A program made the position numbers and the translations under genes. Positions 5,768 through 61,033 of a stretch of DNA of 64,000 nucleotides are shown piece by piece (positions within the stretch are counted from its first letter, which is position 1; the number at the start of each line of letters is the position of its first letter). The DNA is from Tubulanus polymorphus (taxonomy: Eukaryota; Animalia; Nemertea). The notes under the pieces are model-generated. The model was not told where the DNA came from, did no database searches, and saw only the letters and a list, made by a program, of their open reading frames with translations. The stretch lies in contig NC_134027.1 of the NCBI RefSeq assembly GCF_964204645.1, positions 21,910,560 through 21,974,559 of the forward strand. Direction: 5' to 3'.

Positions 5768-6688
<921 letters not shown>

Positions 6689-8667: not shown

Positions 8668-8824
8668 TTTATTGATATGTATATAGTAACAATCTATTTT
8701 AGCTGATTTGATTGAATACTTTCAATCTGGAAATATTACACGTCACTTTCTATCCATATATTGGCAGGTCAAATTACAGCATTCTTTAGCATATTTTCAG
8801 AACACACGTAAAACAATCGATGCA

Positions 8825-15687: not shown

Positions 15688-15788
15688 TATTTCATTTGAC
15701 GCACGAGCTTTCGCTACTTTTGTAGAGTAGCTTCAGTACTGCGAACTACTATGCATTAGTAGCGAAAGCTCGTGCGTCAAATAAAATA
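15688..15788. repeat. Palindromic Penelope-terminus-like repeat, related to 56232-56350
   Basis: TTTGACGCACGAGCTTTCGCTAC ... GTAGCGAAAGCTCGTGCGTCAAA; the central CTGATGA core is lost. Confidence 0.65.
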
Positions 15789-27621: not shown

Positions 27622-30600
27622 ATGGATCGTTTTTTGATTGCCGTCAGTGTGTATGTTTGGATCGTATTCTTGATGGACATTCGATGTAAGTGTAGGCCTC
27701 AATATTAAGATTACATCATCTAATTCATCGTAGTATTCAATGCAGTATATCAGCATATCTGAATTATAGGCAAAAGCTCAGCCAATGATTGTAAACCATT
27801 CTCGAATATTTCCATGAAAATAAAACCCGATGAATCGATTTGGGGCCGAGAATCGTGGGTTCAATGCATCGTTGATAACGATGAGGATTTCTGTGGTGAA
27901 CCACTACGTCTGATTCAACTCCGCAACAACGTTACGAGATTTCAAGTAAATTTCACCAAGTGGAAATGTGAAGTAAGCTTATCATGCTGAATATTAGAAT
28001 GGCGTGTTATTGATTTCTATTTTTGATATTGGCCTCTTGCACGAGGAGGCCATATACACCTTTCTCAAGAAACCGTGGTTTAAGTAGTCTAAGATGACAG
28101 ACTGGAAATAGTTTTTTTTTAAACACCCTCAACCCGCTAAGCGCCACACAGGGCATTATAAGCGGGTTCGATGTTTCTTTTTCCCAATGGGGGAGAGACC
28201 AGAGAAGAATCTTCGACCAAGAAACTCTGTCACCACCAGACAGAGCCCATGAACCCATAAACCCTGGATTGACGATACCAGTGACCGGCGGCTTAACCCA
28301 CTCGGCCACTGCACCTCTGGAAATAGTCTGAACAGTATTATTAAATGTGGGGGGACGTCAACGATGTATCTTTACAGGCGAAGAGCGATGATTTTGTTGG
28401 TTATAACGATATTTTCGGTGAGTGTGATTGGTTCTACAGGCGCATGTATGGTATTTACGTGCGCGAAACGATGTCCAATTACGGCGGTACGTGGGCCTGT
28501 GTATACAATAACACCGTAATGGCAACAGCCGAAGTTACGGTGATTCGTAAGTATTTGGGTGCCGATGATTAAGCACCTGGCTCAGTCTGAACAGAGTCGT
28601 GCGTGATTTCAGTTCAGATTATGAGATACGTCTTGAGAAAAATTGGGTTTGGGATTAGAATTAGCTAAGTCTTTAGATTGACTATGGAACCAAAATGAGC
28701 ACAAATATCCCTAAGGCATCTAAAGCCAAATAGTGTCAATGTTACCGCTGGTTTGAAGTTGTAAGATCTATACTCGAACAAACATAGTCTTTGATAATTT
28801 GAGCTATGAACTAAAAGCTAATACTGGTTCCACGATCTTCCAAGATCTTTAGGAATATTCTTGAAAATGCAATATTAGTTTTGCCAATGCTTCAAAGTCA
28901 AATCTAATTCATATCTGTCTTGGAGTCAACGATTAAAACTCTTAGAACCACCAGCGTTTGATCGTGATTTTGCTATCATTTCAGATGGTCCCGGAGCTCA
29001 GGGTATCGAGGTGATCTCCTCAAAGCGTATTAAACACGAATGGAATCGGGTGGCTCGAATGATAATCGTTGAAGAACATCAAGATTTAGTTTTAATGTGT
29101 ACTGGATATTACAAATACGTTCTGACACCTCTGATTTACCACTGGAGGAAAAGAGAAGGACCAATTTCAGTTCAACCCAAACGAATCGGTCAAAAATCTA
29201 TACTCATTTTCCCTTCCATGAAAACAACGGATAGCGGTTACTACGAGTGTCGCAAACAGAACAGAGCTGAATATGACACTCGTGAGATAATTGTGGAAGT
29301 CTACTGCAGGTCAAATACAACTGGAAAACTGTTACCTTGTGAAAGTAAGTAATCGTACGTAGTAGTGGCTTGGAAGTTAACTCAGAATTTAACAGCTGAG
29401 GAGTTAAATGTGAACCTTAACTAAAAGTTTTATGGATCTGGATCCTGCAATAGATAAAGGGTAACCCAAGGGGTACATTATATGTACAAGTATCGATGCT
29501 CTATTCCTCTACGCCTATCGTCTTTCATCATCCGTATTCGCTGTCGTTATCGAATACTGATGACACATATCAGTGTTTGATGTGTAAGTAAAGGGAACAC
29601 TTCATAGATTTGAAATTAGTTCATTTCCAATTTTTTTCAACTCGCTGGTCTTATTTAAACCGGGAACCATGGAACTGAATCGTGGAGCCAACTTTTAAAA
29701 TCTATACAGAATTTCCCCAACCGATCCGTCTAAAACTGTACGTGAACATTATTTTCAGAGCCACCGAAAATACACTTTGGACGAACCTGGCTTACACAAA
29801 AACCGTACATCGGAGAAAGAGCTGAATTCAAGATATTCTATTATCAATTGAACCCGGAAGACACCGTCGATGTAAAGTGTAAGAATGATCACCGTTCGGT
29901 CGTCAATTCCTGTCGATTCGGTACAAAACGCGTCGTCATAAAAAGGCCGACGAACTGGGGAAGAAGAGGCTGGACGAGATTGTACTTTGGGCAGTGGAGA
30001 ATACGAATATGGGACGTGAAATGGGATGATTACGGGTTTTATACGTGTTGGTTGAAAAATACAACGAACGGTTTACGAACCTATTTCAATATACGACTGA
30101 TATCTCCAGGTTTGTAAACTCAGCGAATAATCGTATTTGAAATCAGTTACAAATGACCCACTTCTTAAATTTCATCCGTTGTTCTTTTGTAGCGTCGCAA
30201 AGTCGAGTTAAGAATCTTCGAGTCGTATATGTGACTGATAAATCATGTCGAATATCTTGGGTATCATTGTCCTCACATCGGAATCAGTATTTTCTGATAG
30301 AGTACCGACTCGTAGGAGCCACTAATTGGACAATTTCACCACCCGTAGTTACGGTTGGAACTGGTTTGGGACGCCATCAATTAAACGGTTTATCACCATC
30401 TAGTGAATATGAGATTAGACTCAGAGATTGGAATCGACAATCAGTTGAATCAGTTACTGCTCCTTCTCAATCAATAACAATTATGACTAAAGGTGACTGC
30501 ATTTTCCCGCGGATGTTTCGTTTTTAGTGTCCACGGATTTTTCTGGAAAATTTTATTCCAAGTTCTTTCTAAACAAGATCGTGTAAATCATGTTTAAACT

Positions 30601-31172
30601 CTTACGTATTTTCAGGATTGGAACCTGATTCTGCAGCGATGTCGAAATTTTTCGATTCGGTAGTGATTTTCGAATCGAGCGAGAAAGTAACCGTCAATTT
30701 AGCCGAATCCCCCGAGCGAAATGATGTCGGTATCAGTGTTCTAGCCTGTTGTCTCAACGAGACGACTGTAGCGACGCCCGTATGTTGTAGATCTTTTAAT
30801 TTCTCATCGCTGATTGGTCAGATGCAAGCGCGAATCGACCGTAACGCCATCTACAGGTACACGGTCAGATTAATTGACGATGGTCACGTCATATATTCGA
30901 GACATGTGCCTGTCGTTGAAGTTGAAGGTATTTTAGAAAATATAAACGGATTCTCATTAAATTCTTCGATTACTATAAATTCATGCAGGTGTTTTTAATG
31001 TTTAAATTTAGATGGAATTTTTGACGGTTTAGATGGTGACGTCACATGGATTGCCTGCGGTGTTATAGCTATTCTACTATTTGGTTTTTTGCTGACAATT
31101 GTTTACGGTAGAAATATCGTTAAAAAATCGCCTAGCCAGTGCTGCCAGATGATTGAAGAAAAACCCACATGA
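27622..31172 (+). CDS. Type I membrane protein: signal peptide, about three Ig-like domains, FN3 domain(s), TM helix, short tail
   Basis: Exons about 27622-27685, 27770-27972, 28378-28547, 28946-29344, 29759-30109, 30193-30493, 30616-30927, 31012-31172, all GT-AG and in frame. Signal MDRFLIAVSVYVWIVFL; Ig motifs GGTWACVY, DSGYYEC, DYGFYTC; FN3 ISW..IEYR..LNGLSPSSEYEIRL; TM WIACGVIAILLFGFLLTIVY. Confidence 0.85.
28030..28318 (-). mobile_element. tRNA-derived SINE-like element in intron 2 of the Ig/FN3 gene
   Basis: Minus-strand head GGTGCAGTGGCCGAGTGGGTTAAG (A box) with a degenerate GGGTTC B box and no complete cloverleaf. Confidence 0.55.
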
Positions 31173-31519: not shown

Positions 31520-32410
31520 TCAATATCATGTTATGCGAGTCAAATTATACAACGGATTTTTGTACAGAAATATATCTCGTCCCAGTCAAATATATATGTA
31601 GAAATTCACCTATAATTACACTAGTGGAACTGAGTGAAAATATCAAATAGAAAATCCTTCCGTTCCGTAGAGATTGGCAGGCATGATGTCACAGTGGTTG
31701 GAAGTGTGAATATTGCAAATGCGAGTGAAACTGTTACAAGCATTATTGTTGTACGTTTTGATTTTGTAGCTTTCTTGTCCGACGAAACTGTTGTTGAACC
31801 TCTGAGTAACTGAACTATTATAACAGAATTTGATGAAACAATTAACGTTAAAGGTAAAATGAAAGCGTGGATGACCATCATTATAAAACATATAAACTGG
31901 GCAAATAATTCATAATAACATCTGAAAGACTGGTTGGTGAAATGTATCGATAAAGTAGGTAGAAGATACACAACCAGTGCATTCACTGCAGTTATCATCA
32001 TTATAACAAATCTAGCGAATCTCGGTGTACTTATCAAACGAGACGTGAACGGGAAGAGCACAACTGCCGCACGTTCTAGAGATATAGCTACTATTAACCA
32101 GGAACTATTAAAGGATACTAGTGTTGTTACGAATTCGATTTGACAACTGATCAGTGAATTCATCACGAATATTGGACCAGTTTCTACGCGCAAGAGAATA
32201 AACTGTAAAACAGGCATCAACGTTAGATTGACGCAGAACATAAAATCAGTGACTGATAAAACAATAAGATAGTTAGCGTAAGATAGACTCCTGAATCTGC
32301 GATTTATCATTATCAGGAAAGGTCAAATTTCCGAATGCTCCGAAGAGGAACAAGATGGGTAGAATGAATAATGACAGCGAACAGTAGCTGTTCGCAACAG
32401 ACATAATGAC
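31520..32410 (-). pseudogene. Intronless class A peptide-type GPCR pseudogene
   Basis: TM1 FILPILFLFGAFGNL is frameshifted against ORF 31621-32310 (LSVTD, SSWLIVAISLER, TM5/TM6). There is a stop at 31621-31623 before TM7, and the TM7 remnant NY..NFYIY is broken by further frameshifts. Confidence 0.8.
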
Positions 32411-35264: not shown

Positions 35265-36809
35265 ATGGAAAATTCCGACGAAATGTTGTCCGATTTTATT
35301 GATCGGGTACTAAGATTGAGCGGCGAGACTTTAAAACGTGGTAAAGACTTAGCGTTGATGCGAGTTCATTTCTCGTCCGATACATGTAAGTCCTAACGAA
35401 AATGTTTCGTCATATTTCAGGTTCCGAAAACGAATTCTGCCTCGATAGCAAAGTTTACTCTGCTGAAAACATACACACAATTCCAGGTAATGAACATAAT
35501 GGAGAACAAGTTTTCATATCAACAGTTTAATGACTATCATCACCCGTTTGAATCATACGAAATTCCTGCTTTCCTAGGTATTCCAAAATTATTCTGGTTG
35601 TCGTTCCGTCCTAAGTCCGCTGTAATATTGACCCATTATGAAACATCCCCGGGTGAAATGGTCAAAATATTCGGCGAAACAATCGGTTGGAGTGATGGAA
35701 TGTATATGCAAAGAATTCCAAACACTTGGTGGCAGGCTTACTTGATCGATCAGCAACTCGCAACTGAGCTCAAACTTGCAGTCGTGGACGAAAATGGACG
35801 CATGAAATGGGAGCCGAGAGCAAATAGATTTGTACGATCGAAGGGAATTTACTTCTGCCAGTGAGGCCGGGCATCTGTGACGCTCGATGGTAATTTTCGT
35901 TTCGGTTGAAATATCCTTATTGAATCTAAAGTTTAGAAACACCGTTACTAGTTCCAGTTGTTTTCTATTCTAGAAAAATCGCTTAACCATAAGATAGAAG
36001 GGAAATCTTCATTGACTCTGCAGCTGGTCACCAAACCAACACTTGTGGATATACCCATATGTGAAATCAAAATAACGAAAAAGACCGCCATAGCTTTCAA
36101 AGGTAAGGAAGATATTAATTTTGTGAAATTCATAGAATTTGAAAAAAAACAACTTATAAAAACGCATCGTTTTATTACATTACAGAACAAGTAGATGAAG
36201 CTATCGGGACGCGAGAATATAACGTAGATGAGATTGTGGACGAAAGCGAACGAAAAGAATGCGATTCCAATGAAAGTCCAGTCGGAGAAAGGCACAGAAA
36301 TCAATTGATCGAAGATTGTTCAAATGAAATGGAAATACCGACGTGGCAAATAGAATCAAAAATTCGCAATCGGAGCTTCACGGACTTGAAAGGTAGGAAA
36401 TTTGAATTTACAGATTTTGACATCAATTCAAATTCAATTTGTCAGGGTTTTACAATTTTCCGAGATGCAGAAGAACTTCATTTTGTTACAGAGAAAATCG
36501 AACAAATTAATCAGCCACGAAAAGTCGAAGATGACAATCAAACAATGGATCTGCAATGTCCCTCGAAACCCAGTTCAGAGGAAGAACCGGTCGAGGAAGA
36601 AATTGAACTCGAATCAGTGGCAGCCACACGTGTCGTGAGGTTCGCCGGCTTTAACGGTACGAGATTCTGTTCACCAGAGGTTGTAGAATTCGTCATTCCA
36701 GTTTGCTATAATTTGATTCTCTAAATCTTTTGTAGGAAAAATCGGGCGATTCGCAAAATATTTACGTCGGGGAATTCGGAGAGCATTTATTTGTAACGCT
36801 GGTCGATAA
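35265..36809 (+). CDS. Multi-exon gene with a CBM20 (starch/glycogen-binding)-like domain, acidic region and basic C-terminus; in-frame TGA at 35862-35864 (possible pseudogene)
   Basis: Exon 35578-35889 encodes HYETSPGEMVKIFG..GW..WW..ELK..V..KWEPRANR (CBM20 pattern). Downstream GT-AG exons continue in frame to ..RKIGRFAKYLRRGIRRAFICNAGR* at 36807-36809. Some internal boundaries are uncertain. Confidence 0.6.
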
Positions 36810-37354: not shown

Positions 37355-37533
37355 TACTGTGGAACTTCGTTATAACGAACTTGGATTCAACGATTCATCG
37401 GATACTACAAAGGAATATAGAATTTTACAAGTAACACAATTTGATTAATTTCATACTGGATACAACAAACTACCGGTTATGAGGAACATATTTTCTGGTA
37501 CCGTGAAATTCGGTGTAACGAGGTTCCACTTTA
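37355..37533. mobile_element. Tigger/pogo-like MITE
   Basis: TIR GTGGAACTTCGTTATAAC / GTGTAACGAGGTTCCAC in a TA context. Confidence 0.6.
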
Positions 37534-38678
37534 CTGTTACGACCCAGATTCGTCACGTGTAATAATTGGTAATAATCATCGTCGTAGACGTGATTTGTTC
37601 GTGGAACATCAATTAAATTAAAATCGTCTCGGCGTCCCCTGTTTGCGGTAGTCTGGTGACATTCGTTAATCGAGTGTTGTTACCAGCTGTAAGGTTTAGG
37701 TTTGGAAGTGGAAACCGAATCTTCTCGAACAAACAGTGATTTTTTGCCGTGTGCCGTGTGCGTTGCGTGTTGCGTGCTGCGTGTTATGTGTTGCATGTGG
37801 TGTACCGTGCGGTGTGTGCTCTATGCGAAATGAATTCGTCCCGGAGAAAATATGTCAACCGCCACTGAGAAGGTATTAATCTTCGTTAGACCAATCCGCC
37901 AGATATAGTTTGAAAATATATGTTACGTAGGTTAACCTTTGTCAACATGTAAATTCAATGATGCCGAGCTATTGGATTTACTTTTTCTGCAGGATTATTG
38001 AAGGCTTTTATCTATTTAGGTTTCATTAGGATTATCGTTGGATTATTGGTGTTATCATCATTTTTCGGTTAACTTATTGAAAGATTATTTAATATGTAGG
38101 TGGATAACAAATTGTTGGATTTTTGATTGGCAAGATTTTTGTTAATTCTTAAGGCCTAAGTCTCGCTTCTCAAAGCTCGACCCGGATACAACTTGCTGTC
38201 TGGTCGCGATATGGGCATCCCCCAGGATGATAAGGCATGATCAGGCGAGTATAAGGCTCGATTGTTGGAAATAAGTTATGGTCAACTTGATGAAACATGG
38301 ATTCTAAATGCATGGATTGATTTCAGTACTATGGATATTCATTTTGTTATATATACACGAGATACGGCCGGAGATGTCTAGGTCTACATACACCGCGACA
38401 ATGTGAAATACCTAATATATGTAATGAGCCGTCTGGCGCAGTAATAGTGCATGTTTTTTTTTCAAATCGGGTTACACTGCACCTGATGATAACTACATAT
38501 GGCGCTTAAACGTTTTAATATCATGCCGATAATTACCTATCCCCGGGTAATAATTATTAATAATTGTGCGGTTAGCTGTAGATAGAAGTGACTAGGCAAA
38601 AGTTCTGCGTAAATAAAAGATTACGTTTCTTACTTTTCCACTGTTTATTACGACATCTTTCTCAATTATTCTCATTCC

Positions 38679-39015
38679 CATCCTCACTTGCCAGGGTATG
38701 ATTACCGCCCGCTGAAGCCCTGGCCAAAATAACTCTGGCCGCAAACCGTTCGTTCGTTTGTCTATCACAGCACCCACGATTTCTTGGGCGGACAGGTATC
38801 CACTCAGCGCCCACCAGTATATTTACATAGCCAATCAGATGTATGGTATTTGTAGTGCAAACGTCGTGCCGGTAAAAACGCATCTGATGGGCTAGATATA
38901 TGGCTTTGAGCGGGAACCAGTCCACCCAAGAAATCGTGGGCAATGTACGTAATAGAACAATGAACGGTCTGCGGCCAGGGTTATGGGTTTGTATTGGCCA
39001 CAGAGCGCGAGGATG
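38679..39015. mobile_element. hAT-like MITE
   Basis: Ends CATCCTC / GAGGATG, exact 8-bp TSD CTCATTCC, internal inverted arms CCCACGATTTCTTGGG / CCCAAGAAATCGTGGG. Confidence 0.75.
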
Positions 39016-41158
39016 CTCATTCCTTACTCCCGATATATTTATCGATATTCATTTTAGTCTTTGCGCCAGATATTTGACTCGATATATGCTGATGCAACTT
39101 AAATCATCACTTGTTATGCATATCAAATATTAAGGCAGCATTTTCTGGGATATCCCGAATAACGACATGCCCAGGAGCCAGCAGTTGTAGAAATGTCGAT
39201 AATAGTTATACACATTATATCAGTATCGTCATTCTGCTAAATCGAAATCCGAAATAAATGCGCTATAAGCTCATTCCAGGGAGTCATGAATTATGCGAAT
39301 TAAATTCCCACCGTTGGATAATTTTTAATCAGAATTTAGAGCGTATTTCTATATATCTCGAAAAAATCAACCATCCTCCTCCACTTACACGCTACCCTTC
39401 GAATAACGTATTAGCAATGCAGAAAAAGATCATAAAACAACAATGGGACATTCTTTACTAAAAATCATCTGCTCTTAAACTACCCGCGCTTCGATTACAC
39501 GATATCATCAAAAATATCCTTTTACTTATTTTGCTTAAACAATAGACTACTGATGTATATACTCATGTATATATGTATAGGGGTTAATGCTAGCTGTTTA
39601 TTACCTATGCATAGCGTCTGTAACTGATTGAATAGATTTATGACTTTAAAAAAAAAAGTTTTTCATGTTCAATCTATTACATATGCCGAGCATAGAGGGA
39701 CTGATTGAATAGATTTCTGAATAAGAAAAAAATGAATAATAAACAGTACATAACGTTACTTAAGTAGGTCAATTTGCAGACCAGAAATGTGAACAAATTA
39801 CAATTTCGCACCGCAGTCGCCCAGCTACCACTCTGTACACTTCGAGTGCGTTTAATGACTGTCGTGCGTAGACGAGTAAAAGAGCTGGCTTTGAATTTCC
39901 TATTACCCGGTCGGTTTCAACTAGGTACTAGACGACCTACTGACAGGATTCAAATGTAGGAGTTGATCGTCAAATCTGAATTCTAAGAATCACCTATCTT
40001 CGATATATTGTTGGACCTTTGTTTCGATGGATCCGAGTGCGATGGTAATCGGGAGCAGCCAGTAAGAAATTATTCATGTATTCGTTTATTTCCTGAATAT
40101 TTTAAATCAATAGATACAAAAATTTACAGAATGATAATATACAATTATTTTGTTTTATACATAGATATAAATATATGCTGATGTAAAATTGCAGCGGGGC
40201 AACCTAAGGGACAAATTATTTCGATATTCCGGTAACATATATATATCATTAACGCAGAGATGTAAAATCGAACCGTTTGGAAATAATCGATATCATTTAT
40301 TTCAAGGTTTATGGTAGTTCTAATTGAACAGCGGGTATGGGCTCAAATTACACTGGCTGCTTTCTTGTACAATGCATACATAGATATTTACGTAATATAT
40401 CTTATTCGTATTATCCGTACAACTAGCGATAAATCCGTGGAAACCACGGGCGTTTTTTCTTTAAAGTATAAACTTCCAACTTTTCGATAGATATTGCAAG
40501 TGAATTTAGTATGAGCTATTAGTAGCCTATAGATGTGATATCCCTTGCCCGCAAAAACGTGTCCGATCTCGGGGACTTGTCCTATGCTTGTGTCCGTAGA
40601 AGCCGCGGTTAACGGAACGATAGTTAGAAAACAAAATATGTAGAGTAGTTTAACTGCTCATGAATTGAGTAGGGCCATTTTATGATGTTCATGTATGAAT
40701 ATCACGCGGTGCTGAAGATTTCCCGTGACCGTGGTAGCCGCGGGTAACGGAAATATAGGTAGAAAAATGTTAAATTTAAAAGATTCAGTCCCCAACGACT
40801 GTATATTGTAAGTCGCATGTAAGTCAGCATTGCTGCAGTTGTGAGATAGGATAGAATATTGGTTTTGGAGCCAATGCTGCCCTAGCAGTTCAGACATGAA
40901 TTTCTGCGTTCTGATAAGAAATGTCTTGTCCCCAACGCGAAGTCGCTATTATTGTAGAGATGTCTTTCTAGGGAAGTGGTTACCTAATTTTATGTTCTTG
41001 TTTCAATGTTATCATTGTCATTTTTATCATTATAATCATTACAATAATAATTATTATTTTTGTCATTGTCATTATATTGCAACTATAAACATTATCATAA
41101 CAATAACCGACATTCTTATCATAATTAGCATTGTCATCATTCTAGGCAACGAAGCAAA

Positions 41159-44100
41159 ATGATAAAAATAGGAGTCATAGGCTGCGGCCACTGGGGCAAG
41201 GACCACGTACGGGTTTTGATCGAACGCGGCTCGCTGGCCGGCGTATGCGACTCGGACGCGGCGGCCATCGCGGCCATTCGCCAAACTAAGCCGGACGTCA
41301 TCGTCTACAGCCTCGACGAGATGCTCGCCGACGCTTCCGTCGAAGGCGTGGTCATAGCCACGCCCGACCGCAGCCACTTCGACCTGGCTGAACGCGCGTT
41401 ACGAGCTGGTAAACACGTGCTGGTCGAGACACCGATGACGACGTCGTACGCGCAGGCGCGGGCACTAGTACGTCTGGCCGACGAGCGCCGTCTGCTGGTA
41501 ACGACCGGGTATCATATGCTGCACCAGGGCGCCGTCAGAATGATGCTGCGCTCGATCGAGAGTGGCGCGATCGGTGACGTGACGAACGTACGAACTCATC
41601 GCTATCGCCGACGTTCGTGCGCCAACATCCAGGTTCACTGGTCTCTTGGACCGCACGACGTGGCCGTCATCCTAGCGATCAATGGTTGTCGGCTACCCCG
41701 GAGACTGAGAGCGGTGGGAGAGCCGACGCAAGAGGTCGACATTCGCATGGAGTTCGGCGATAATGGCGATGACGGCGCGCTGAAAACGATGTCGGCGATT
41801 GCGCGGGGTTTTCCGGTTGTGGAACACAAAATCGTCGTGAACGGTACGGAAGGCGCATTCGTGTTTAACGACACGCTGCCCAGGGGCCAGAAACTGAAAT
41901 TCTACCCGGCCTACACCGGCCAGGACGCGGCGAGCTGGTTAACCTTGACGCCGGACGCTGGTGACGGTGGATTTTTCGTCGCCTGTCGCGAAGAGGAGCT
42001 GCTAATGTCGGAGCACTCCGCGTTCGCGAAGGCGATCGAGTCAAACGGTGGAGATGGTTATCCGGAATCGTGGGCGTGCAACGACTTCGGCGCCTACGTC
42101 GCGTGCGTCTTGGAGCTTGCGCACGAGTCTCTCCTAACCGACGGATCCTGGCGCATAGTCGATGAATATTTAAATGGGCAACAGATTCGAGCTCCGAATT
42201 CGCGTAAAGAAAACGACAAGTACGCACCCGTGCACGGTAACCCGGCCGTTCAGCGCGGCTCGGCGAGCGACAAGCGTGATGAACTAACCGCCGCGTGTCC
42301 TCACACCGACCTTGCAATGGATGGTGATATCTCTCAGCTCCCTCTAGTCACCAACGAAAAATCCGATAAAAGATGCAAACCTCTCCACCAGGCGGTGGTT
42401 GGTAGCGATGAAACCTGCGATAGCTCTCGGCGCGCACCGACAGCGACCGCCGGTTGCGAACCGCCCCCACCGGCCCCGATCACTCTAGCCGGTTTGGAGC
42501 GACAACTGAAGGTGGTCGATAAACCAGTTAAAGCCCGCGTGATATCGGTAATCGATAGCTGCAAGTTTATATTCGGCCCAGAAATGGCTCAGTTGGGAGG
42601 AGAATTGTCTCGATTCTGCGGTTGTAAACACGTCATCACCTGCGCCTGCGGCACCGACGCGTTGCGTTTGGCTTTGACTGCGAAAGGCGCCACTCGGCCG
42701 CATCAGGCGGTATTCGTGCCGGCGAACACGTGCTGCTCCACGGTTGAAGCGATCATAGTGGCCGGCGCAACGCCCGTATTCGTCGATGTGCGGCAAGATA
42801 CGTACAACATGGACGAGACGAGCCTCGCAAAAGGTAATATATTGTGTGCTTCTTGCGGAGTAGAACGCAAACTGCGTTGCGTATGAAATAATTCAAAAAT
42901 ACAGCATAATCGGAATTAAGTTCAGATTAATCGAAGTTGGCGGTTTAATTCTGCACCAAATCGATATCAATGTGAAATACATGAAAATGTTTATGAAATA
43001 CACAATACGGTGTCCCGTACTGCGGTGAAATTGAGACTCATAATATTCTACTAATACATCTAACTCAGTATTTGAAAACCAAACTATGTATTTGATACCT
43101 CCGGATAGTCTGAGCCTAACATAGCGAAATGGATTCGATATACTGCATGTTTTACGACAGCTGTGGGTTGACCCTGTTACTTCAAACGACACGCGACATG
43201 CTTTTCAGGATGAACTAATTAGATTCGACAAAACGAAAATGTATTTTCCAAGTTTGACCCACTATCACACAAAAACTAATAACGATAATTGAAAACTGTA
43301 AAAAAAAACATAGAAAAATACATATAAATACCTATTGATCCTGAAAATTTCAAAAATATAGATTAAAATTTGTAAGAATTGCAAATTTTTGGATGAGATG
43401 AGCAATAATTTAAGTTGAATTATCCGGAAGACGATATCAATGTTTATGACTTCACCAGCGCGCATTGTTGCAGTACATGTATATGAATGAGTAATATCTT
43501 TAAAAAGTCCAGAGGTATGAACGAAAGAAAAAAATTAAAGGGGGACAAATAGGGACAAAAAATTCAACTATGCGGACCCGGCGCGTACCCAAAATAATGG
43601 CGCCTGGAAACTTTAAAAGGCTTAACGAATAAAACCGACAGTTACTTCTGTAAAAACAGTTTATTGCCTTAAAGTTTCGAGGTTCAAACTAAACCTGTTT
43701 GAGGTTTAGTTTTGAACCTCGAAACTGCACTCGAACTGTCGGTTTTATTCGTTAACTCTACACTGAGATTTACATCAGTTCACTGCAGTCATGTAAAAGG
43801 CTTATTGCATTGCCGCACTAATCAATTTATACCATAAATACCGAAGATCTGACCAATTTTCATATCGTTTCAATTATTTCGTTTGGTTTTTTTTCAGCGA
43901 TCGAGTTGGCCCGAGGCAGCTCTCTCGAACCTACCGGTGTCGTTGTCGTAGACCTGTACGGTATGCCGGCCGACTACGACGCAATCGGTGCCGTCGCTCG
44001 AGTCAACGACCTGTGGGTTTTAGAGGACGCGGCGCAAAGCTTCGGCGCCGAGCGCAACGGCGTGAAAGTGGGTAACATTTGCGAAATAACGATAACCAGT

Positions 44101-45384
44101 TTCTACCCGGCGAAGGGTCTCGGTACGTTTATAGTCGAATTCATTAAATGTGTATGGCGTGCTATCACGCTAGGTGGCAGGTGAATCGGTTGAACAAATC
44201 GTTCAAAAACCGTTCAATTTTCTAGCCTTCTACATAAACCAATTTAACCTTCTGGCTAACTACATCATCCAAACAAGTGCAATACGCAATAAATTACTTG
44301 AAACAGCAGTATGGAAATTTAATGTGCTCTTATAGGCCAAAATTGGCCGGTTGGATCAACTTAGTAATGCATCAAACTTTGCAACGAATGCAGACTAGGC
44401 AAATTACACGTCTCTAAAGAAGCACCAGAAGCACCGATTAATCTTCAAAGGATTCGTATAAAAGCGAGAATTTTATTCACCATTCGTAGAATTTGAGAAA
44501 TTATGGATACATTTTCAATTGAAACTGAAAAGAGACTCGGTACACACACGTTCGCGTATGATATAAATATTACCACGGTGTACCCACCAAATATAAATCA
44601 AATTAGTTTTTCAACTCAATGATGGATGTAGTTTTCAGTTAGTGTCCACTTTCAGCCCACAGCGGGCTATGCGTTCAATTTTCGTTTTCAATTTTTCAGT
44701 TTCCAACTCAAGTAAAACATTTTTGGACCTTATTTTTCGTCTTTATTGTGGGGTTCTCGTTTTATTTATGCGATCAATAATATCCTAGTTCAATGTCCCT
44801 CTTTTTCCTGTTTAGGATGTTTCGGAGATGGCGGAGCCGTACTCACCAACAGCGACGAGTTAGCGGCCGCTGTCTGGAGTCTCCGCGCTCACGGCCGCAG
44901 CCCGGACCACAAATACCACATCGAACGAGTCGGCATGAACAGTCGTTTAGACACCCTCCAAGCGGCCGTACTGCTTGAAAAACTTAAAATCTTCCCCGGC
45001 GAAATCGAATCGCGGCGTCGTATCGCCGAGCGATATCGTCAGCTGTTATCGCCGCACGGCGTCACGACGCCGACGACACCGGCCGGCGTGGCGTCCTCGT
45101 GGACGGCGTACACAGTCGTCCTGCCGACCAACTGCGACCGAAGCCGCGTCATCGACGACCTAGAACGACGGCATCGCGTACAAACGGGTGTCTTCTACGA
45201 GCCGGGACCGCAGCACAAACTGCCCGCCTTCGCCGACTATTTGCGGCCGGCGATGACGGTTGTCGACGGCCTGCAGCCGCGAATACTTAGCCTGCCCGTA
45301 CACCCTTACCTGCGCGACGACGAGGTCGAACGCGTTGCCCGAGCACTGGTCGAATGCGTACGAAATTTCACGATCAAAACGTGA
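41159..45384 (+). CDS. Bacterial-type Gfo/Idh/MocA oxidoreductase - DegT/DnrJ/EryC1/StrS aminotransferase fusion (about 822 aa, intron-containing)
   Basis: Exons 41159-42833, 43898-44122, 44816-45384 (2469 nt, two phase-1 GT-AG introns). N-domain: IGVIGCGHWG, VIATPDRSHFDLA..AGKHVLVETP, LGPHD. C-domain: GTDAL, GATPVFVDV, VDLYGMPAD, EDAAQSFGA, SFYPAKGLG|CFGDGG (PLP Lys motif rebuilt across the splice), GMNSRLDTLQAAVL, LSLPVHPYL. A possible extra 5' exon lies at 40027-40061. Confidence 0.92.
43622..43756. mobile_element. Palindromic MITE in an intron of the fusion gene
   Basis: TTAACGAATAAAACCGACAGTT / AACTGTCGGTTTTATTCGTTAA arms plus an inner hairpin TTTCGAGGTTCAAA / TTTGAACCTCGAAA. Confidence 0.7.
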
Positions 45385-46164: not shown

Positions 46165-47637
46165 AAGTTCTTCTTAATTGGCTAACCTTGGCTTAACCTT
46201 AATTACCCTTGATATTTTGAAAAACCTGTTGGTCAATTTGGCTAAATACATTAAACAAGGCTTTTATGTATAGAGATCCCTCCATTAGTGTATATCGTAT
46301 ATACGTCTTGTATATACTTAATGTATATTTTGTTAATGATTGTGTTATGTTTTCATTTTTTGACGCCTTATAAAACGTTACCATTATGAAACCTAAACAA
46401 GATTAACCATTCAGCGTCATTTTACAAACGAACCGTAAATCGATGTGCAAAACGTCACAGGTCTATGTGTAAACATTCAATCTATTTGGCAAAATACTAT
46501 TTCTTCCTATGATTATATAATGAGCTCTATTTGAACGTCGAAATGTTATATTGCATTGAATGTCATTAGAAGACGTATTGTAATAGTAAAGGATGTATGA
46601 TTATATCAGAAGCCGCAGGCGTAAATAGAAATGATAAGTAAATCGGAATATTCGGTCAAAATGGCGGATGTATACACGATTTGGAAGTCTGATATAAAAG
46701 TAAGACCCTGACATGGGGATGCCGGTGGAATGACGAAGCTATCTACGATCTGTGTGGGGCCGGCGTGAGTTTCATCGGCGGCCACAAGTCGTCAATATAA
46801 AAATGTGTAAACATATAATTTCAATATTCAAATGTTTTTAGAAAATATGTTCGATATAAGGGGTATGCAGGTGTCATGAGATTAGCAATTCATAATAGCA
46901 TAGCTGTCATATACGGCTCCACGTCCTCTGATGGCATGAGTATTATGTGACAATTCAATTCAATTCTTTATTGATCCTTATTACATATAAAATTCCCAAA
47001 TTCAAAAAAGTTACAAATTTTAAAATAAGAAAATACAACATACAAGACACGTGCGTAATTCATACAGAATAACATAAGCAAGTAATTTTAAATGACAATG
47101 TCTACTTCAACTCAAGAGGATATCGAGTGACAGCCAAACCGGGGACCGGCCGGACCGGCTGGCTGGGCCACACGATATGCTTCAAAGTCATGATGCAGCA
47201 GAGATCAGAAGGGAGCTCTTTCCTCAACCATGGAGGCAATGAAGTTGCAGACCAGCTTAGAGGCAAAAGTGAATGAATTCGGTCGCAAGTTATCAATTAT
47301 TGACAATTTTCAATAAAAGAATTAAACCTACAGTCGACAAGGTCTGTATCATCTACCCAATCGCCTATTCTCATAATTTCCCAAATTTCTTAAAACTTCG
47401 ATTTCAAATTTGCAATTCCACATTAGCTTATCCAAAAAATTCTACATTTTTTCGCAGGCGTCAAATAATTTATCAAAATTAATTTCCTTATTTATAATTT
47501 CTATCACTTAAGTGTTGTTTTTTAAATAGTTGTATACACGTATGTAGTAAGTTTCCTCCTTGTACAATTGAAATGGTTGGAGTGTGAATAAATTCGTATT
47601 CGTTTATTTTGTATTCGTATCGCCAAATGCTTATCAA

Positions 47638-53229: not shown

Positions 53230-56200
53230 AACGGAACCTGCCATTTGGAACTTTAGTCCTAGCGAGCTATGCATTCAGTTTTGGTTCGTCGTTCGGACGA
53301 CGAACTACAATTGAACGCCTGTCCATTCGTTGTTTGCTTTATGTTCCGTGGATCTGGCCCGACCTCGCTCGATGGAAGTGAAATCTTCAATTTCCACGAA
53401 CGAACTTAGAATAATTTGCCAATGAATACTGGATTCGGTCACTATACTACGACAAACGCTGATCCACTAAGGGTCAACTCCGTAATCGACGCATATTCGA
53501 CGACTGTATTTTCAATTGGAATCTTGCAAACGTTTCTGTGGTGGAATAAATAAATTTTCAAGTAGCTATGCCATCATATGCCACGATAAACAGTTGACAT
53601 ATATTACATGGAGCTTTCAACGAACTAATCCAGGGAGAAACACACTAAATGATTGGAAGGTTGCACCTTCTTCGTCATTTTTTATAAAAAGGGCTAAGAA
53701 AAAAAGGGTATTTTCATTTTGCAGAACACCCACGGCCAACAAGATCAGTGACGTCGTATAGTGGTTTGGCTTTTACTATAGCGAACGCGAAAGTAACCCA
53801 GAAATAAATCTTAATATAACGAAATTGTATAAAGAAGAAAACAATGTTGAATGTTTATTGACGCCACTAGAAATTACGCTCACATTGCTTAATTCTGTTG
53901 ACGGGTTCTAATGTAAAATAAAAATAGTATCTAGGACCAAAAATATTTTTGTTTTCAATTTGAATATATCAATAATTGAATTGAATTGACCAACAACCAG
54001 TCTATCCCCGATATGTTGATGACGTAGTGAAGTTTTTCGAATATAAAATAAAAGTTATGAAATATGATTACGAAATAAACAGCAAAATTTACGACTGTAA
54101 TTGTTATTTTGAAACATCAATATTAATGACGTAGTGCACATCGACTCACACAGGAGCCCTTAAATGACGAATAGTAGTAATCAGTGTAAACTAACATTCT
54201 TATAACAGTTTTTAGGGCGTCAAAAATCAATTACTAATATATATATAGGAACGATTCATTTCAGCTGATTTTATCTAATTATTTTTAACTTGTCGAGAAA
54301 TATTCCACGTCATTGTTATCTACTTGATTATTCACCAGTCCTGGAAGTGGTTGTTTCTACTCAACAGCGCTCTGTGATCATCTGTACCCAACCTGTGGTA
54401 ACATCGTCGGACACTGTGGAGGAACAGATTGCTAATTTTCGAAATGATGTAGAAAGCTCATCCAGCCGAGCTGAAAGGAAAATTCAATAGGCACTAACAG
54501 TGATTTTGGGATATCGGAAACATATGAAATTCTAAATCTTCGTCTTGTCATATGTGAAGAAGATATTTAACCAGCCAATAATCAACTTTTGCGTCATTGA
54601 TATAAACATCCGAATTATGTATAAACCTTGATTGGAGTACAATATATAATTTCATTTGAAATATTTTAGTTCAGTGGTAAACCACTACACTCCATGAAGT
54701 GTCATCTGTGTACTGTTTCCACGATACGTTTAAATTACCTTCATGCAGAATTTTTTGTCCTCCATATCGAGATCCGCATCAATAGTTTTTATGTAGCTTG
54801 TATAGAGACACGCCGATCTGTCTTCGTCCTCGGGCTGAAACAAGAATAAACCGAACAAATTTTCTATATAAGTTGTTTCGGGAAGCGGTAACTCAACGCA
54901 TTCGGTTGATTACTGACTTTTTTCGAGAGTGCGCGGATACGAATTTGCATTGCTTTTATGACGTTCCAAATATATCCGAAAAGAGACGTCGGGTTTACGA
55001 CATCAATTTCCGATCCCAATAACAACTTGTCCATACTGTAACCACGATCCCTGATGAACGACATTACCTCCGCGTGCGAGACCTAAAAAGATGAGTTCGA
55101 CAATACTGCTTCTTAATCCCAGGGCGTTATATATCGATAGTCGTTTTCGAACTTGACAACCTGTGAGCAGTGAGTTCAGAAAATCACTCGGAACAAGGCC
55201 CAATGTACCTGGTTGTTCGAATTCCGATCCAAAGCTTTCAACATTTCATCACATTTATCCCGGTCCTCATTAAAAAGTAGGCGAAAGTCTTCATCTGACA
55301 GCAGATCCTTCTGAAAATGTAGATCAAATTGCTATCATGCGTACGTATCAATTAAGTTGAACTGTTGTGTTAACATGTATATACTATGTAATGATAATTT
55401 TGCAACAAACGTCTTACATTTTCAAAGGCGGTTCTCAGTTCATCTGCATCGATTAATCGGTCATTATTTTCGTCAGATGTATGTAGACTACGGATAACAC
55501 GTTTCATTGCCCCGGCTAGTTTGACATTCTTTACATGCCCAGTTCTTTTCGCGATTGTCTCTTCACCGCGTTTTCTGGTAAAGGAAAGTTAACATAACTG
55601 CAGCAAAGCCAGGTTCAGTTGGCCTGGCATGTGTTTTTGTTTTTTTTCTAGGATTTAACCATATTTCGATCAAACCATGTTGCTATGGCTGGGTATGCCG
55701 ATTTACAAACGATAGAAACGATAGTTACTTAATTTCTACTGTATCCCGGAACTTTGCACAATATTTTTGAAACACAGTGAACATGATTTGACTCATTCAG
55801 AAGTTTAGAAGTTAACGAATTTAAGTTTAATCAACTATGCAACGGATGCTGTAACATTTTGCATGAACAGAATGCGGTTGTAGTTTTACCGTGCAAGTCT
55901 AGTATCAGGATGCTTTGGCCACTCGTATTTCCATTTTTCAAAGAAATCAGCTTTTCCGTGTTCTTCCTCGTCCATGTCAAACTAGTGATTTAATCAACAA
56001 CGGAATAATTTATTCGCATGTGCAATCGGCGTATTGATTATTCACCGAACGATTACCATTTTCCAGGAATAATTACCAGATGAAGCCCGAAAGTTTTTTT
56101 ATTGATGGTGCCAAATGGTTCTACATTCTTGTCAAACATCGCGAAGTAATCTTTGTCCGGATCCATGCTCAAATACCAGCCTTTATAATTTTTGAGATAA

Positions 56201-56239
56201 TTTTGTAATTATTGCTTTCTTAAAGGTTAAGTATTTATT

Positions 56240-56345
56240 TGACGCTCGAGCTTTCGTTACTAATATGTAGAAGCTTCATCAGGTGAATTCACTCATTCAC
56301 CTGATGAAGCTTCTATACGTTAGTAGCGAAGGCTCGTGCGTCAAA
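56240..56345. ncRNA. Inverted pair of Penelope-type hammerhead motifs
   Basis: Plus strand: CAC-CTGATGA-AGCTTCTA..TAGTAGC-GAAG-GCTC-GTG. Minus strand: CAC-CTGATGA-AGCTTCTA..TAGTAAC-GAAA-GCTC-GAG. Confidence 0.55.
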
Positions 56346-57169
56346 TAAAAACTTAACGTATATAACACTACTCGTCTCGTTATTTAGAATTATCTCATTA
56401 AGTCATATCATGTCATTTTCATATATCTCATATTTTTCTAAAAGGATGCGTCAATGTAATTCATTTGTTACCAAGTACTCACCATCGAATGCGTTCATGG
56501 GAAAATTATGTAGCAGGCCTCCGTCCACGAAATAAGATCCCCGGAAAAAGGATGGTTTGACAAGAGCTGGAAAAAGTTATAATTTTAGAATCGAACAGCC
56601 AAAGCCATATAAAAACTACGAGCTTCCTTTTAAGTAATAAGTCAATGCATTTCGAGATACTTATGTGCCAACTTACGTGGAAATGAACATGATATGATCG
56701 CGGCGTATGCAATGGGGACCTGTGGCGTTGTCTTTACGTGGAAATATTCCGGTGTTTGGTGAGTTATATTTGCAACTACTATGCACAATTCGACACCAAA
56801 TTTGTCATACAACTGAAAGACACGTGAAAACTAGCAAAGAACGTGTCCAAGATTTTATCATGAATGAATTTGAGTTGATTATTTTTTCTCGTGTGGAAAA
56901 CTACGGGTATATTTAGGGTTTCTGCCTTTTACCGAAAATCGTATTGCTTTCCTCCGAATTATTGTTTTCAATATAACAGTTATCTGCTTTTTTTGTTTTT
57001 TATCATTCTATTTTTATAATGTTCTATACAAAATCCTATGATTTCATATCTTTCTACTGTATCCTGTGACTTTGCTTTGGTCAAACCTTTAAGTCTTTAA
57101 ATATCAAATCTTCTAGACATCTCCGTAATGTCAATAGTCAAGTATTTTTCAGTCATCTTCTTCTCTGAA

Positions 57170-57530
57170 TCTTATGCCTGTCGTATTAAATTTTAATTTG
57201 CTAATGAACCAGTATGATGAATTCGGAAAGAAATTTTTGTTTCTTTTTGTACCAGCTCGTTCTCTACGGTCTAGTCAGGATCCTATTATTTTAGGCAAAC
57301 ATGTGCCAATACGAAATTTTGGAAGTAGAGCTTCTAAGATCTCAGCACCTCGGTTATTCTTTTCCTAGAACTGTCAGCAAAAGACCATCTATTGAAGCTG
57401 TTATGCGTATTCTTAAAACTTGCCTTTTTAGAAGAACATTTATTTTTTTTTATATTTAATCAATATCTTAGTGTTTTATCATATCTTAATGATTCTTATA
57501 CTTTTATACTTTGTAAAGCGCCTGAAGTAA
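57170..57530 (+). mobile_element. 3' fragment of an L2/CR1-group LINE
   Basis: Translates VPARSLRSSQDP..FGSRASKISAPRLF..LKTCLF, the typical ORF2 C-terminal signature of L2/Crack LINEs, followed by a GTAAAGCGCC tail. Confidence 0.55.
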
Positions 57531-57574
57531 ATTCAATTAGTGATTCTTGATCACTGGATGACTGGTCAATTGGT

Positions 57575-58097
57575 TGACATTACCATCATGCCCATCTCCA
57601 CCATCTCCATTATCTCCACAATCACCTTGCTCAGCATCATCATCACCACTTTCATCTCCATCACCTTCTCCAGCCTCACTGCCATCATCAGCGTCATCTC
57701 CGCCATTTGCAAAATCACCTTATCCAGCATCACCATCTACCACCTTCTCGAGCATCACCAACATCACCATCATCTCTATCACGAGCATCACTGCCATCAT
57801 CACTACCGTCTTCACCATATGCACCATCACATCCACAAAACATCACTACCACCATCACCAGCACCGTCTCCACCATCTGCACCATCGCAATCGCCAGCAT
57901 CCCTATCATCACCATCATCACTAACTTCACCATCATCTCCAACACCAGCATCACCTTCTCCAGCATTACTTTCATCACCATCATCATCGTCCAGTCGACC
58001 AGTCATCTAGTGATCCAGCCATCTAGTCATTCAGTCCGCCAGACATCCAGTCACTCGGTCATCCAGTCACTCGGTCATCCAGTCATTCAGTCGACCA
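57575..58097. repeat. Degenerate (CAT/CAC)n low-complexity tract followed by 12-bp CATCCAGTCANN repeats
   Basis: Direct reading. Confidence 0.9.
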
Positions 58098-61033
58098 GTC
58101 ATCCAGTCATACAGTCAGCTGCGCATATAATGTGTAGGACGGTTGAATATAGATATGTCAATCGTTCTGGAACTTTTTAATCGGATTCTAAATTGGGCCA
58201 AAAAACTAATCATAATCTGCGCTATATGAGACTGGCTTGGTATTAAATAAATACCTTGTAGGAAATCGGTATTAAACAAAAAATGTTCAATTATTTCTTC
58301 AGGGGTCATACCAATTGAACACATCGTGGCTACGACTGACCCTATACTAGTGCCTGCAAAACGTTTTACATTTTTCAGGACTCCCATATCACCCAGTGCC
58401 TGAAACGAATTACTCGACATAGTACGTGAAAAGGTCAAACAAGATTCTATGGAAATCACCAGGCATATGACTGTCGTAAGAATAACAAAAAGACCGAGTG
58501 TATTTTAAATTTGTTTCGAGATTTATGAACATAGACAGCCGTGTCTTTTCGTGTTTTTGAGATAATTTCGATAATCACTGCAATCGATTGGTTCAAATGA
58601 TAAAAGGTAGTAATAGTTATTATGGTAATGAATGACCGCATGATATATGAGGTGAAAATCATTATTGACAATGATGACGTAAGAAGCGCTTGCAAGATAA
58701 GGAATATAGGATGTGAAATGAGTATCATCTTAAGTTACACATGAAGTGTATTGTGATCAATAAAGTGATACGTTCCTCGGTACATGTATCAGATTTATTG
58801 TTACCAGTAGCGCGCCACAATACGCAAGCCCTTTAGTGCCACCTCCTTCAAACACTAGATTCTCGATGTCGTAATTTCGACCGATGAATTTCTTGAAAAT
58901 GGCATCGTCCCTGATATAGTCGACTGCTTCTTGTACGCGCAAGCCACGAGACTGCAAAGACGCACCGCTTCTCATCCCTGAAGTGAATTCGTATTATTTA
59001 CAGAAAGAAAACAAGGAATGAATGCTATGATATCAATTGAATTAAGAAGTACATTATCGGAACAATAAGTTTTTTCTTGTATTTTTCAAAAGAAATAGCT
59101 TAATCATTGCGTGGAGGTCTGACTCCAGTGCATTTTGATTGATACCATTCTACGTTACATAACGTTTACACAGCATTCGACAAATCTAACCATATCTCGT
59201 TTATACGAAAGCGTCCTGGAACGTTATTTGTTGTTTCTTTAATTTTCTAGTTTTTAAGAATCTTATTCCGTTTGAGTAACTCAGAATAGAAAAATTTTGT
59301 GTAAATCTTTCTATAATTTCCGATTCGAAAATACGAAAAAATTAATTTCAATGATTTTATCTTTATACAGTATATAATTAAAAAAAAGAAGTAAAAAAGA
59401 ATAAAAGGCATAATTACATTTTTGCCGATTGAAAATGATGAAAGTAAATAGAAATTCGATTATTTATTAAATCTTATGTTTTTTCAACCGACGGTGGTTT
59501 ATTCCGACTAATTCCCAAAATCAAATCATTTCTAAAATCTAATTTTTTCACGGAATGAAATCCTTTAGGTTTTTTTGGTAAAAACAAAAGAGACAGCTTC
59601 GATCTTACGCCATTTTAAACCATTTTGGCAAGGGTGTATCCTCGCTAGTTTCCAACCTTCAAAATGAAATAGATTTATCTTACACGGTTTTCAATGTTAT
59701 TTACTAATTTTTACGAAAATCACGCGTTATATGAAGTGTGTAGAGCGCTAACGAGGGAAAGCGCAGGCACACGGTGCACGCTGAGTAATATAGAATGTCA
59801 ACGCGTCCTACCGGGGTGACATAGTAGTAAACGATTTGATTCCCTGAAAAAGAGTCGGAATTAAATCGCCGGCCAAAAAAGATGTAATTTAATAAGTAAT
59901 GCTTTATTTCTGTAAAAGAGCCGAATCAAATCTATGTAAAATCGAATTTCTATATGATTTTATGATTCTTCGATTGGCATAAAATAATCATGCTCTCAGG
60001 ACGCGTCCGTAATAGTTATAGGCCTTTATATTATTTGTTGATGAAAAAAACAAGCGAAAAAACTTACTTAGTTTTGACTGCGTGTTTCGCGGTTGTTTTT
60101 CGTTTGATAGAAAGAAATGCGAACGTCACATGTGAGCGCTACGAACTGGCGCCGTCCTTATACAGATTGTCTCAGAAAATGTTTTACCGAAGCGTTAAGA
60201 AAAATAATTCATCAACTATGATCGTAATTAATGAATCCGCGAGATCACGATATCCCTAATGACACAATAGATATAAGATCCCCCAATTTCGCTTGGTATC
60301 TACTTCACATATCATTTTAGACTGACGAGGTGTGGAAGCAACCAGATATAATGAATAATCTGTCAACATAAATGAAAAATCTGATTTTTTTTCTTAAGTA
60401 CTTGGTAGTCAGAATTGCATTTATGAACATTTCCGTCTACGTGGTTTCAGGCGTCACAATTAGCTTTTTATATGATTCAAAATTGCTTTTACTTTGATTG
60501 AAATGAGGCTTATATGATTAAAATGTTTTTTTTTATATTCATAGCCCATATGAACTAATATCTTTTGCTCGGTGTCCCTGAGTGGGAATATTGGTTAATA
60601 CATGTATTCTTGTTACCACATTTCTATTCTAACTTTTAATTCTTCTCGTTGTACTTAAATAAACCTGCGATTAAATTATATTCTATAATTTTATTGAAAT
60701 GAAATCACGGATCTCCTTCACGGAAAAGAGTTTGATCACCAAATCAAAACAAATCAAAGGAAATCTACCCGTCGACTGAATAACAGGGTCGATCCCTACT
60801 TTAAGATGAAAACACAAAAAAGTACCGTAACAAAAAAGGAATAGGAAAAATTCGTTTGCAGCACGCAATATCATACCGGACCTTGATCCTGAAATTGTTA
60901 CTAATCGAATTGACGAATACCTCTCAGTCACCAATCGAGTCTGGATCGGTTGAAATACCCCAAATGATAGACTATAGAAAAGACTTTCAGTCATCCACAT
61001 GTTTAAGGGACATGTTTAAGGGGTAAGATTAGG

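Follow-up and report, generated by a model that had tools for sequence, protein, structure and literature searches.

A probable aminotransferase-only paralogue of a likely horizontally acquired, putative three-domain sugar-nucleotide enzyme in the nemertean Tubulanus polymorphus

We examined a 64,000-nucleotide stretch of the Tubulanus polymorphus genome (hereafter the window; assembly GCF_964204645.1, contig NC_134027.1, positions 21,910,560 to 21,974,559 of the forward strand), which carries on its plus strand LOC141901581, a gene that joins a Gfo/Idh/MocA-type dehydrogenase domain to a DegT-type aminotransferase domain. The gene was identified by a 100% match in a protein search and lies on a 27.8-Mb scaffold. 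Joined at their GT...AG boundaries, the exons at 41159-42833, 43898-44122 and 44816-45384 give an 822-codon frame with zero internal stops, and the spliced protein is identical to the 822-amino-acid (aa) RefSeq isoform P0122. The exons have a GC content of 0.59-0.61, against 0.34 and 0.36 in the introns and 0.38 in the whole window. This agrees with an earlier annotation made from the sequence only (the first-pass annotation), which had noticed GC-rich coding sequence in AT-rich DNA, split by two AT-rich GT-AG introns, one of them with a miniature inverted-repeat transposable element (MITE). Intron 1 (42834-43897, 1064 nt, phase 1) indeed contains at 43622-43755 a 134-bp MITE-like element with TTAA ends and perfect 22-nt terminal inverted repeats, or alternatively an 18-nt terminal inverted repeat between TTAA sites, with opposite-strand read joints at its ends. 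Intron 2 (44123-44815, 693 nt, phase 1) was correctly placed within the motif of the pyridoxal phosphate (PLP) lysine: it cuts the codon of Gly634, three residues past Lys631 in SFYPAK(631)GL.

RefSeq lists three isoforms of LOC141901581, of 843 (X1, P0121), 838 (X2, P0001) and 822 aa (P0122). The two longer isoforms begin in alternative first exons, whose coding parts lie at 37823-37872 (P0121; followed by GT) and 40027-40061 (P0001; followed by GTAAG), and both continue at an acceptor at 41146, whose AG ends at 41145; the 822-aa form starts from an ATG at 41159. In these models the gene therefore has a third intron. The large exon (41146-42833) encodes the dehydrogenase domain (41159-42199; Pfam GFO_IDH_MocA, residues 2-118), an acetyltransferase remnant (42206-42343), a linker and the first part of the aminotransferase (42479-42833). 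The exon at 43898-44122 holds Asp602, Gln605, Ser626 and the catalytic Lys631 (44113-44115), while the last exon completes the aminotransferase with Arg677 and Tyr761 and ends in a TGA stop. An AlphaFold model of the protein has a mean predicted local distance difference test score of 85, with two well-folded domains and disorder over residues 344-431.

The window gene has paralogues on an 11.5-Mb scaffold of the same species. One of these, P0272, is a 1069-aa, WbpB/WbpD/WbpE-like protein with dehydrogenase, hexapeptide N-acetyltransferase and aminotransferase domains; the others are P0271 (dehydrogenase), P0002 (dehydrogenase-acetyltransferase) and P0152 (acetyltransferase-aminotransferase). 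The copies on that scaffold are near-identical and clustered, and P0002 carries two substitutions at conserved sites, W12C and R148W. Some partial paralogues may be split or mis-annotated copies; P0271 and P0152, for example, could be halves of one split gene. The window protein is 67% identical to P0272 over residues 1-348 and 70-82% identical in the aminotransferase. Between the two, P0272 residues 349-509 (~160 aa) are gone in frame from the window gene, between 42199 and 42206, and the sequence that follows (42206-42343) matches the C-terminal tail of the hexapeptide (LbH) acetyltransferase (P0272 residues 510-559; tblastn, 48% identity, E 4e-6). Part of the window 'linker' is thus a remnant of the deleted acetyltransferase. 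Consistent with this, Pfam finds no Hexapep domain in P0122, whereas P0272, P0002 and P0152 each have one, and the hexapeptide beta-helix that characterizes WbpD/WlbB is deleted from the window protein. Because an in-frame gap is followed by the acetyltransferase tail, the window's two-domain fusion corresponds to the three-domain fusion minus its beta-helix, and by this comparison the gene likely descends from a dehydrogenase-acetyltransferase-aminotransferase triple. Both domain trees unite the worm copies with a support of 100.

The aminotransferase domain appears to be intact. It scores 289 bits against PF01041 (gathering cut-off 19.8), and the profile is matched from position 7 to 359 of 360 across all three exons (positions 7-105, 115-175 and 178-359). 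Its closest solved structures are 4qgr, 8e75 and 3nyu/3nu7 (Brucella DegT, Pcryo_0616 and WbpE; E 1e-71 to 1e-78), with template-modelling (TM) scores of 0.93-0.96 at ~40% identity; for WbpE itself the TM scores are 0.94-0.96. NtdA/KabA match more weakly, at 27-28% identity and E 1e-34 as opposed to E 1e-71 for WbpE. The first-pass annotation had assigned the gene to bacterial families of sugar C3 oxidation and transamination, and this membership is borne out, much nearer to WbpE and Pcryo_0616 than to NtdA/KabA. In alignment, Lys631, Asp602, Gln605, Ser626, Arg677 and Tyr761 fall on WbpE Lys185, Asp156, Gln159, Ser180, Arg229 and Tyr309; a structure of the WbpE K185A mutant has been deposited (3nys), and Asp602, Gln605 and Ser626 are presumably PLP contacts. 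In sequence and modelled fold alike, the domain would qualify as a WbpE-type aminotransferase. Of the 38 columns that at least 95% of non-worm rows conserve, it differs at 1, compared with 8.4 expected if unconstrained, an expectation scaled to the divergence at variable columns (P=0.0008). The lone change is Gly480 (codon 42596-42598), at a column where Glu is 99% conserved: the window has G at 42597, while 11 of 11 reads in run X5 (raw DNA reads from a second study, taken at an 85% identity threshold) have A and restore Glu, so that the difference is either an allele or an assembly error. With the PLP lysine kept and the conserved columns preserved, the aminotransferase looks alive, and the column counts indicate that it is under purifying selection.

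The dehydrogenase domain presents a different pattern. It is still recognized by PF01408 (86 bits, cut-off 24) and keeps the GxGxxG glycines (8, 10 and 13) as well as His166-Asp167, which includes the catalytic His of the HD motif. However, position 91, which is Lys in 278 of 279 aligned dehydrogenase domains, is Thr solely in the window protein (41429-41431), and position 118, His in 277 of the 279, is Tyr (41510-41512). A third change at a near-invariant column is K221V. All three worm paralogues with a dehydrogenase domain keep Lys91 and His118. When columns at least 95% conserved among 275 non-worm rows are considered, the window protein differs at 3 of 17, close to the 4.1 expected if unconstrained (P=0.38), while P0272 and P0271 differ at none; the contrast in constraint is the same at thresholds of 90% and 80%. 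Since near-invariant residues are lost and the conserved columns carry no measurable constraint, the window dehydrogenase is probably inactive. Its best solved match is 7bvj (E 7e-19), which we take to be GnnA, and its best NCBIfam match is the uridine diphosphate (UDP)-GlcNAc 3-dehydrogenase model NF040723, at 72 bits for the window protein and 96 for P0272 against a cut-off of 450.

We then placed the worm family among its homologues. Domain trees were built with FastTree, together with a quick IQ-TREE of 59 aminotransferases, a careful joined-domain tree of 21 rows and a quick one of 28; rows were hand-picked from the matches, without isoforms P0001 and P0121 and with a minimum domain coverage of 85%. 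A long stem of 2.0 substitutions per site leads to the worm lineage, which has an expanded linker. With the domains joined, it falls, at a support of 100, within a clade of 20 rows that comprises bacterial operons and bacterial and fungal fusions and leaves viral rows outside; none of the trees fixes the place of the worm branch. An approximately unbiased (AU) test did not reject the worm and fungi as one clade (p=0.186), and it was borderline for the worm with two viral rows (p=0.0495). Among 438 proteins screened, 40 from outside the worm have a triple fusion with the domain order of P0272 (39-45% identity); they include named Actinomycetota, Acidimicrobiales and the ascomycetes Clonostachys and Alternaria tenuissima. 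Four more named fungi have a two-domain fusion. The triple is found in 0 of 80 genome loci, all from a prokaryote collection with 72 alphaproteobacterial titles. Bacterial proteins give the best identities, reaching 51% in the aminotransferase, versus 37-43% for named fungi. Apart from the worm copies, no animal homologue was named and no match stood at intermediate identity among the best 120 of 991, 120 of 235 and 120 of 7857 matches and the best 150 among 50% representatives, where most rows are nameless and nemertean sampling is thin.

Because the distribution is so patchy, horizontal transfer into the worm is well supported by these comparisons. A bacterial donor is likely, yet not established, because ascomycete fungi carry the same fusions. 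The horizontal acquisition proposed in the first-pass annotation thus stands, while its bacterial source does not stand as firmly: the annotation had missed the fungal fusions, and the separate domain phylogenies that it called for unite the worm copies without resolving their placement among bacteria.

Several observations accompany these trees. The ascomycete triples and two-domain fusions (Clonostachys, Alternaria, Tricladium, Hyaloscypha, Nemania; P0204, P0209, P0186, P0199, P0201, P0229, P0288 and unnamed relatives) form one clade of 27 rows with a support of 100. They are probably a separate transfer from bacteria, of which we found no description. Four proteins (P0293, P0206, P0314 and P0318) have a permuted order with the aminotransferase first, and such permutations indicate that the three genes have been fused repeatedly. 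Viral contigs carry the same genes at lower scores: five (L165, L173, L175, L182 and L233; GC 0.20-0.30, three labelled GVMAG) encode the dehydrogenase-acetyltransferase pair, and four of the five the aminotransferase too, which suggests that giant viruses or large phages synthesize 2,3-diacetamido sugars.

With the acetyltransferase deleted, dehydrogenase residues lost and aminotransferase motifs intact, the window copy is probably an aminotransferase-only paralogue. The reading that we favour, with reasonable though far from full confidence, is that LOC141901581 is a domain-deleted paralogue of a horizontally acquired triple that now acts only as a PLP-dependent sugar C3-aminotransferase. 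The first-pass annotation had proposed a two-step pathway in one polypeptide. In that form the proposal is not supported here: the window copy appears to be a deletion derivative of a triple still intact as P0272, its dehydrogenase bears K91T, H118Y and K221V, and the route predicted for the family reaches a 2,3-diacetamido sugar in three steps.

A number of points weigh against an aminotransferase-only role. That the EKP lysine at position 91 is catalytic in GnnA and WlbA is our assumption. In another family member, Lys91 and His119 touch the sugar and an H119N mutant stayed active, as far as the available text of the report goes (PMC9795676). Compared directly, the difference between the domains is of marginal significance (Fisher p=0.083 for the window allele, 0.026 for that of X5), and rough FastTree branch shares underlie the unconstrained expectations. 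No NCBIfam equivalog cut-off is reached. The window aminotransferase branch is ~4 times that of its paralogue, so the substrate may have shifted. Among the 15 of 83 joints listed, none is a splice joint at the introns of the window gene; transcription therefore rests on the RefSeq isoform models, which, from the general workings of the NCBI pipeline, we take to be RNA-based. Finally, the GC content at third codon positions (GC3) is 0.68, compared with 0.30-0.46 in seven host open reading frame (ORF) stretches, some of which include intron sequence; oddly, this high GC3 fits poorly with a long stem that suggests an old transfer.

What the intact triple might make can be predicted from its bacterial relatives. 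The acetyltransferase of P0272 has its best solved match in 3mqg (E 9e-48), presumably WlbB, and the entry title of the Pcryo_0616 structure 8e75, a relative of the aminotransferase, names UDP-N-acetyl-3-amino-glucosaminuronic acid synthesis. From 160 bacterial or metagenomic loci, we picked 15 with the same domains; a UDP-sugar 6-dehydrogenase is nearby in 5, a UDP-GlcNAc 2-epimerase in 2 and an asparagine-synthase-like amidotransferase in 6. These bacterial loci contain glycosyltransferase, ABC-export and Wzy-family genes, a context of surface-polysaccharide clusters. On the model of WbpB-WbpE-WbpD chemistry, as set out in the available parts of two papers (PMC10622841, PMC4031482), P0272 would act in the cytosol in three steps: C3 oxidation of UDP-GlcNAc (or of UDP-GlcNAcA given a WbpA-like enzyme) with NAD+, transamination of the 3-keto sugar with glutamate as donor, and N-acetylation with acetyl-CoA. 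This route would yield UDP-GlcNAc3NAcA or, in a worm without WbpA, UDP-GlcNAc3NAc, either of which could go into a host glycan, for example that of the mucus, tube or egg coat. Acting on 3-keto sugar from its paralogues, and perhaps dimerizing with them, the window protein would serve as an extra transaminase; being a transaminase only, it would need those paralogues for step one. As a tentative proposal, held less firmly than our reading of the window gene, Tubulanus may make a 2,3-diamino hexose (GlcNAc3NAc or its uronate) by a trifunctional enzyme of bacterial origin and use it in secreted glycans, with domain-deleted paralogues (G, G-A, A-D and G*-D) setting the balance between free 3-amino sugar and its acetylated form.

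Other explanations of the window gene have to be weighed against these proposals. The high exon GC content relative to the window is what a contaminant or a chimeric assembly of bacterial DNA would leave, and we consider this explanation very unlikely, to the point of dismissal: the gene is host-resident, given its canonical introns, its animal neighbours, its 27.8-Mb scaffold and an exon depth like that of the flanks in a second study's DNA. In run X5 the large exon has 7-12 reads per bin and the unique flanks 7-18, as for about a single copy, which speaks against the chimeric assembly that the first-pass annotation had named as a refuting outcome; the last-exon bin, at ~25, is above the flanks, perhaps due to paralogue reads passing the 85% threshold. 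A spliceosomal intron sits inside the catalytic motif, intron 1 holds a host high-copy repeat (~43330-43618; depth ~540 in bin 43340-43706 versus ~10 in unique DNA), the paralogues lie on a second large scaffold, and the neighbours are animal-type (Ig/fn3 exons, two rhodopsin-family G-protein-coupled receptor (GPCR) ORFs and patatin exons), as the annotation had said. A host-resident gene could still be a superfluous copy that has begun to decay and is hardly, if at all, expressed or functional, so that only the triple matters. One domain is deleted and another eroded, both terminal branches are faster than those of the paralogue, and no spliced contig of the gene occurs in three small contig sets (runs X6, X7 and X8, with 1, 0 and 72 records); neither this absence nor a 171-nt contig of run X8 identical to 42598-42768 was weighed for or against expression. 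However, the 822-codon frame has stayed open despite 20-30% protein divergence from P0272, the conserved aminotransferase columns are preserved, and there are canonical splice sites and three annotated isoforms, which makes decay decidedly unlikely. The converse is that the window protein is a self-sufficient two-step enzyme, with the acetyltransferase lost adaptively, a free 3-amino sugar as product (UDP-GlcNAc3N-like, as with GnnA/GnnB) and Thr91 and Tyr118 forming a re-tuned site. Dehydrogenase-aminotransferase fusions without an acetyltransferase do recur (40 non-worm proteins of the 438, fungal and Bosea-like ones included), the Rossmann motif and His166-Asp167 are kept in a domain predicted to fold with high confidence, and a Tyr is able to act as base in the family, going by the available text of PMC9795676. 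Yet every other row of the 279 keeps the lysine, including the two-domain fusions that pass the coverage filter, and three or four independent conserved positions are altered at about the unconstrained rate; we regard a two-step enzyme as unlikely, though a serious competitor.

Two further alternatives concern the family as a whole. Gfo and DegT pairs also make kanosamine, and the family could make a small-molecule amino sugar or aminocyclitol of that kind for chemical defence and not a glycan precursor. NtdA/KabA are among the weaker matches, and nemerteans use toxic mucus, according to the accessible portion of PMC6410017. All the closest structures are, however, UDP-sugar enzymes, the bacterial context is one of surface polysaccharide, and NtdA/KabA are only 27-28% identical, so we find a defensive role very unlikely, if less so than contamination. 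As to origin, the triple may have come from a fungus, or from a eukaryotic source shared with the fungal clade, and not directly from a bacterium. Clonostachys and Alternaria tenuissima carry the triple and other ascomycetes the two-domain form, the AU test leaves the worm with fungi unrejected, and the 80 named-genome loci are without the triple. On the other side, unconstrained trees never unite the worm with fungi, the top identities are bacterial, and bacterial triples of the same order exist in Actinomycetota and Acidimicrobiales. A fungal or shared eukaryotic source is therefore unlikely, and we keep a bacterial donor as the likely source.

The worm family resembles several known systems. 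The enzymes WbpB/WbpE/WbpD (WlbA/WlbC/WlbB) of Pseudomonas aeruginosa and Bordetella, and Pcryo_0616 of Psychrobacter, lead to UDP-GlcNAc3NAcA through the same three enzyme folds. These bacterial enzymes are separate proteins whose operon also encodes WbpA and, in many cases, WbpI, whereas the worm's are fused and intron-bearing, and the window copy is without the acetyltransferase and the dehydrogenase lysine. GnnA/GnnB, which convert UDP-GlcNAc to UDP-GlcNAc3N for the lipid A of Acidithiobacillus and others (the GnnA reaction is described in the available text of PMC11446377), provide the best dehydrogenase matches, namely 7bvj and the UDP-GlcNAc 3-dehydrogenase model. The worm dehydrogenase is nonetheless far under that family's cut-off, and its relatives make up a separate subfamily, in which fusion to an acetyltransferase is common. 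The kanosamine enzymes NtdC/NtdA and KabC/KabA share the two fold families and the C3 chemistry but act on glucose-6-phosphate, and they have no acetyltransferase partner. The actinobacterial and ascomycete triples have the domain order of P0272, from which the worm differs by its long branch and expanded linker; no characterized member of these triples was found in the literature searched. Among eukaryotes, the dinoflagellate Karenia brevis has a transferred MviM-WecE fusion of Gfo/Idh/MocA and DegT domains that was duplicated and gave aminotransferase-only derivatives. In contrast to the worm family, that fusion is from a protist and has no acetyltransferase, and its aminotransferase groups with the DesV/FdtB/QdtB type, in so far as the available part of the paper describes it (PMC2064935). 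A patchy eukaryotic distribution of DegT is likewise described for Andalucia in the accessible text of PMC7050145. We found no animal report of such a gene or fusion in the literature searched, where subscription papers largely fall outside. The window gene is thus probably unreported, while the kind of event is already known in protists.

Animal glycans use few monosaccharides. If Tubulanus does make a 2,3-diacetamido sugar, this would extend the animal glycome and provide a basis, open to testing, for mucus or tubes that resist degradation. The available portions of two papers (PMC4031482, PMC10622841) name bacteria and archaea as sources of 2,3-diacetamido sugars, and no description of a 2,3-diamino hexose (GlcNAc3NAc or its uronate) outside prokaryotes was found in the literature searched. 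The main interest lies in the 1069-aa P0272 more than in the window copy, which matters less than first thought because it probably performs one step only. P0272 would catalyse all three steps in a single chain and yield a sugar nucleotide whose preparation is difficult, the keto intermediate being labile. The family is, in addition, an example of how a transferred multi-domain gene acquires introns and is broken up through duplication.

We also considered a link to tetrodotoxin (TTX) and dropped it, its only trace being a table row of TTX immunostaining for this species.

The rest of the window holds features of its own. Just upstream of the first alternative exon, 35397-36721 (plus strand) has a weak match to the CBM20 starch-binding domain (E 0.015) followed by an acidic exon without an assigned domain. 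Three paralogous patatin-like phospholipase genes are present on the minus strand, two of them in tandem within 8657-24651 and the third on the opposite side of LOC141901581 at 54433-58988, with exons 75-89% identical. A likely cell-adhesion or receptor gene contributes exons at 28879-30995 (plus strand) that encode Ig and fibronectin type III domains, and the open frames of rhodopsin-family GPCRs lie at 31624-32322 and 63319-63999, both on the minus strand. A microsatellite of pure (GT)n runs for about 1 kb at ~5750-6700. High-copy repeats, as judged by depth, fall at ~37430-37530, 38600-38950, 43330-43620 and 46355-47000, and reach up to ~2800 reads compared with 10.

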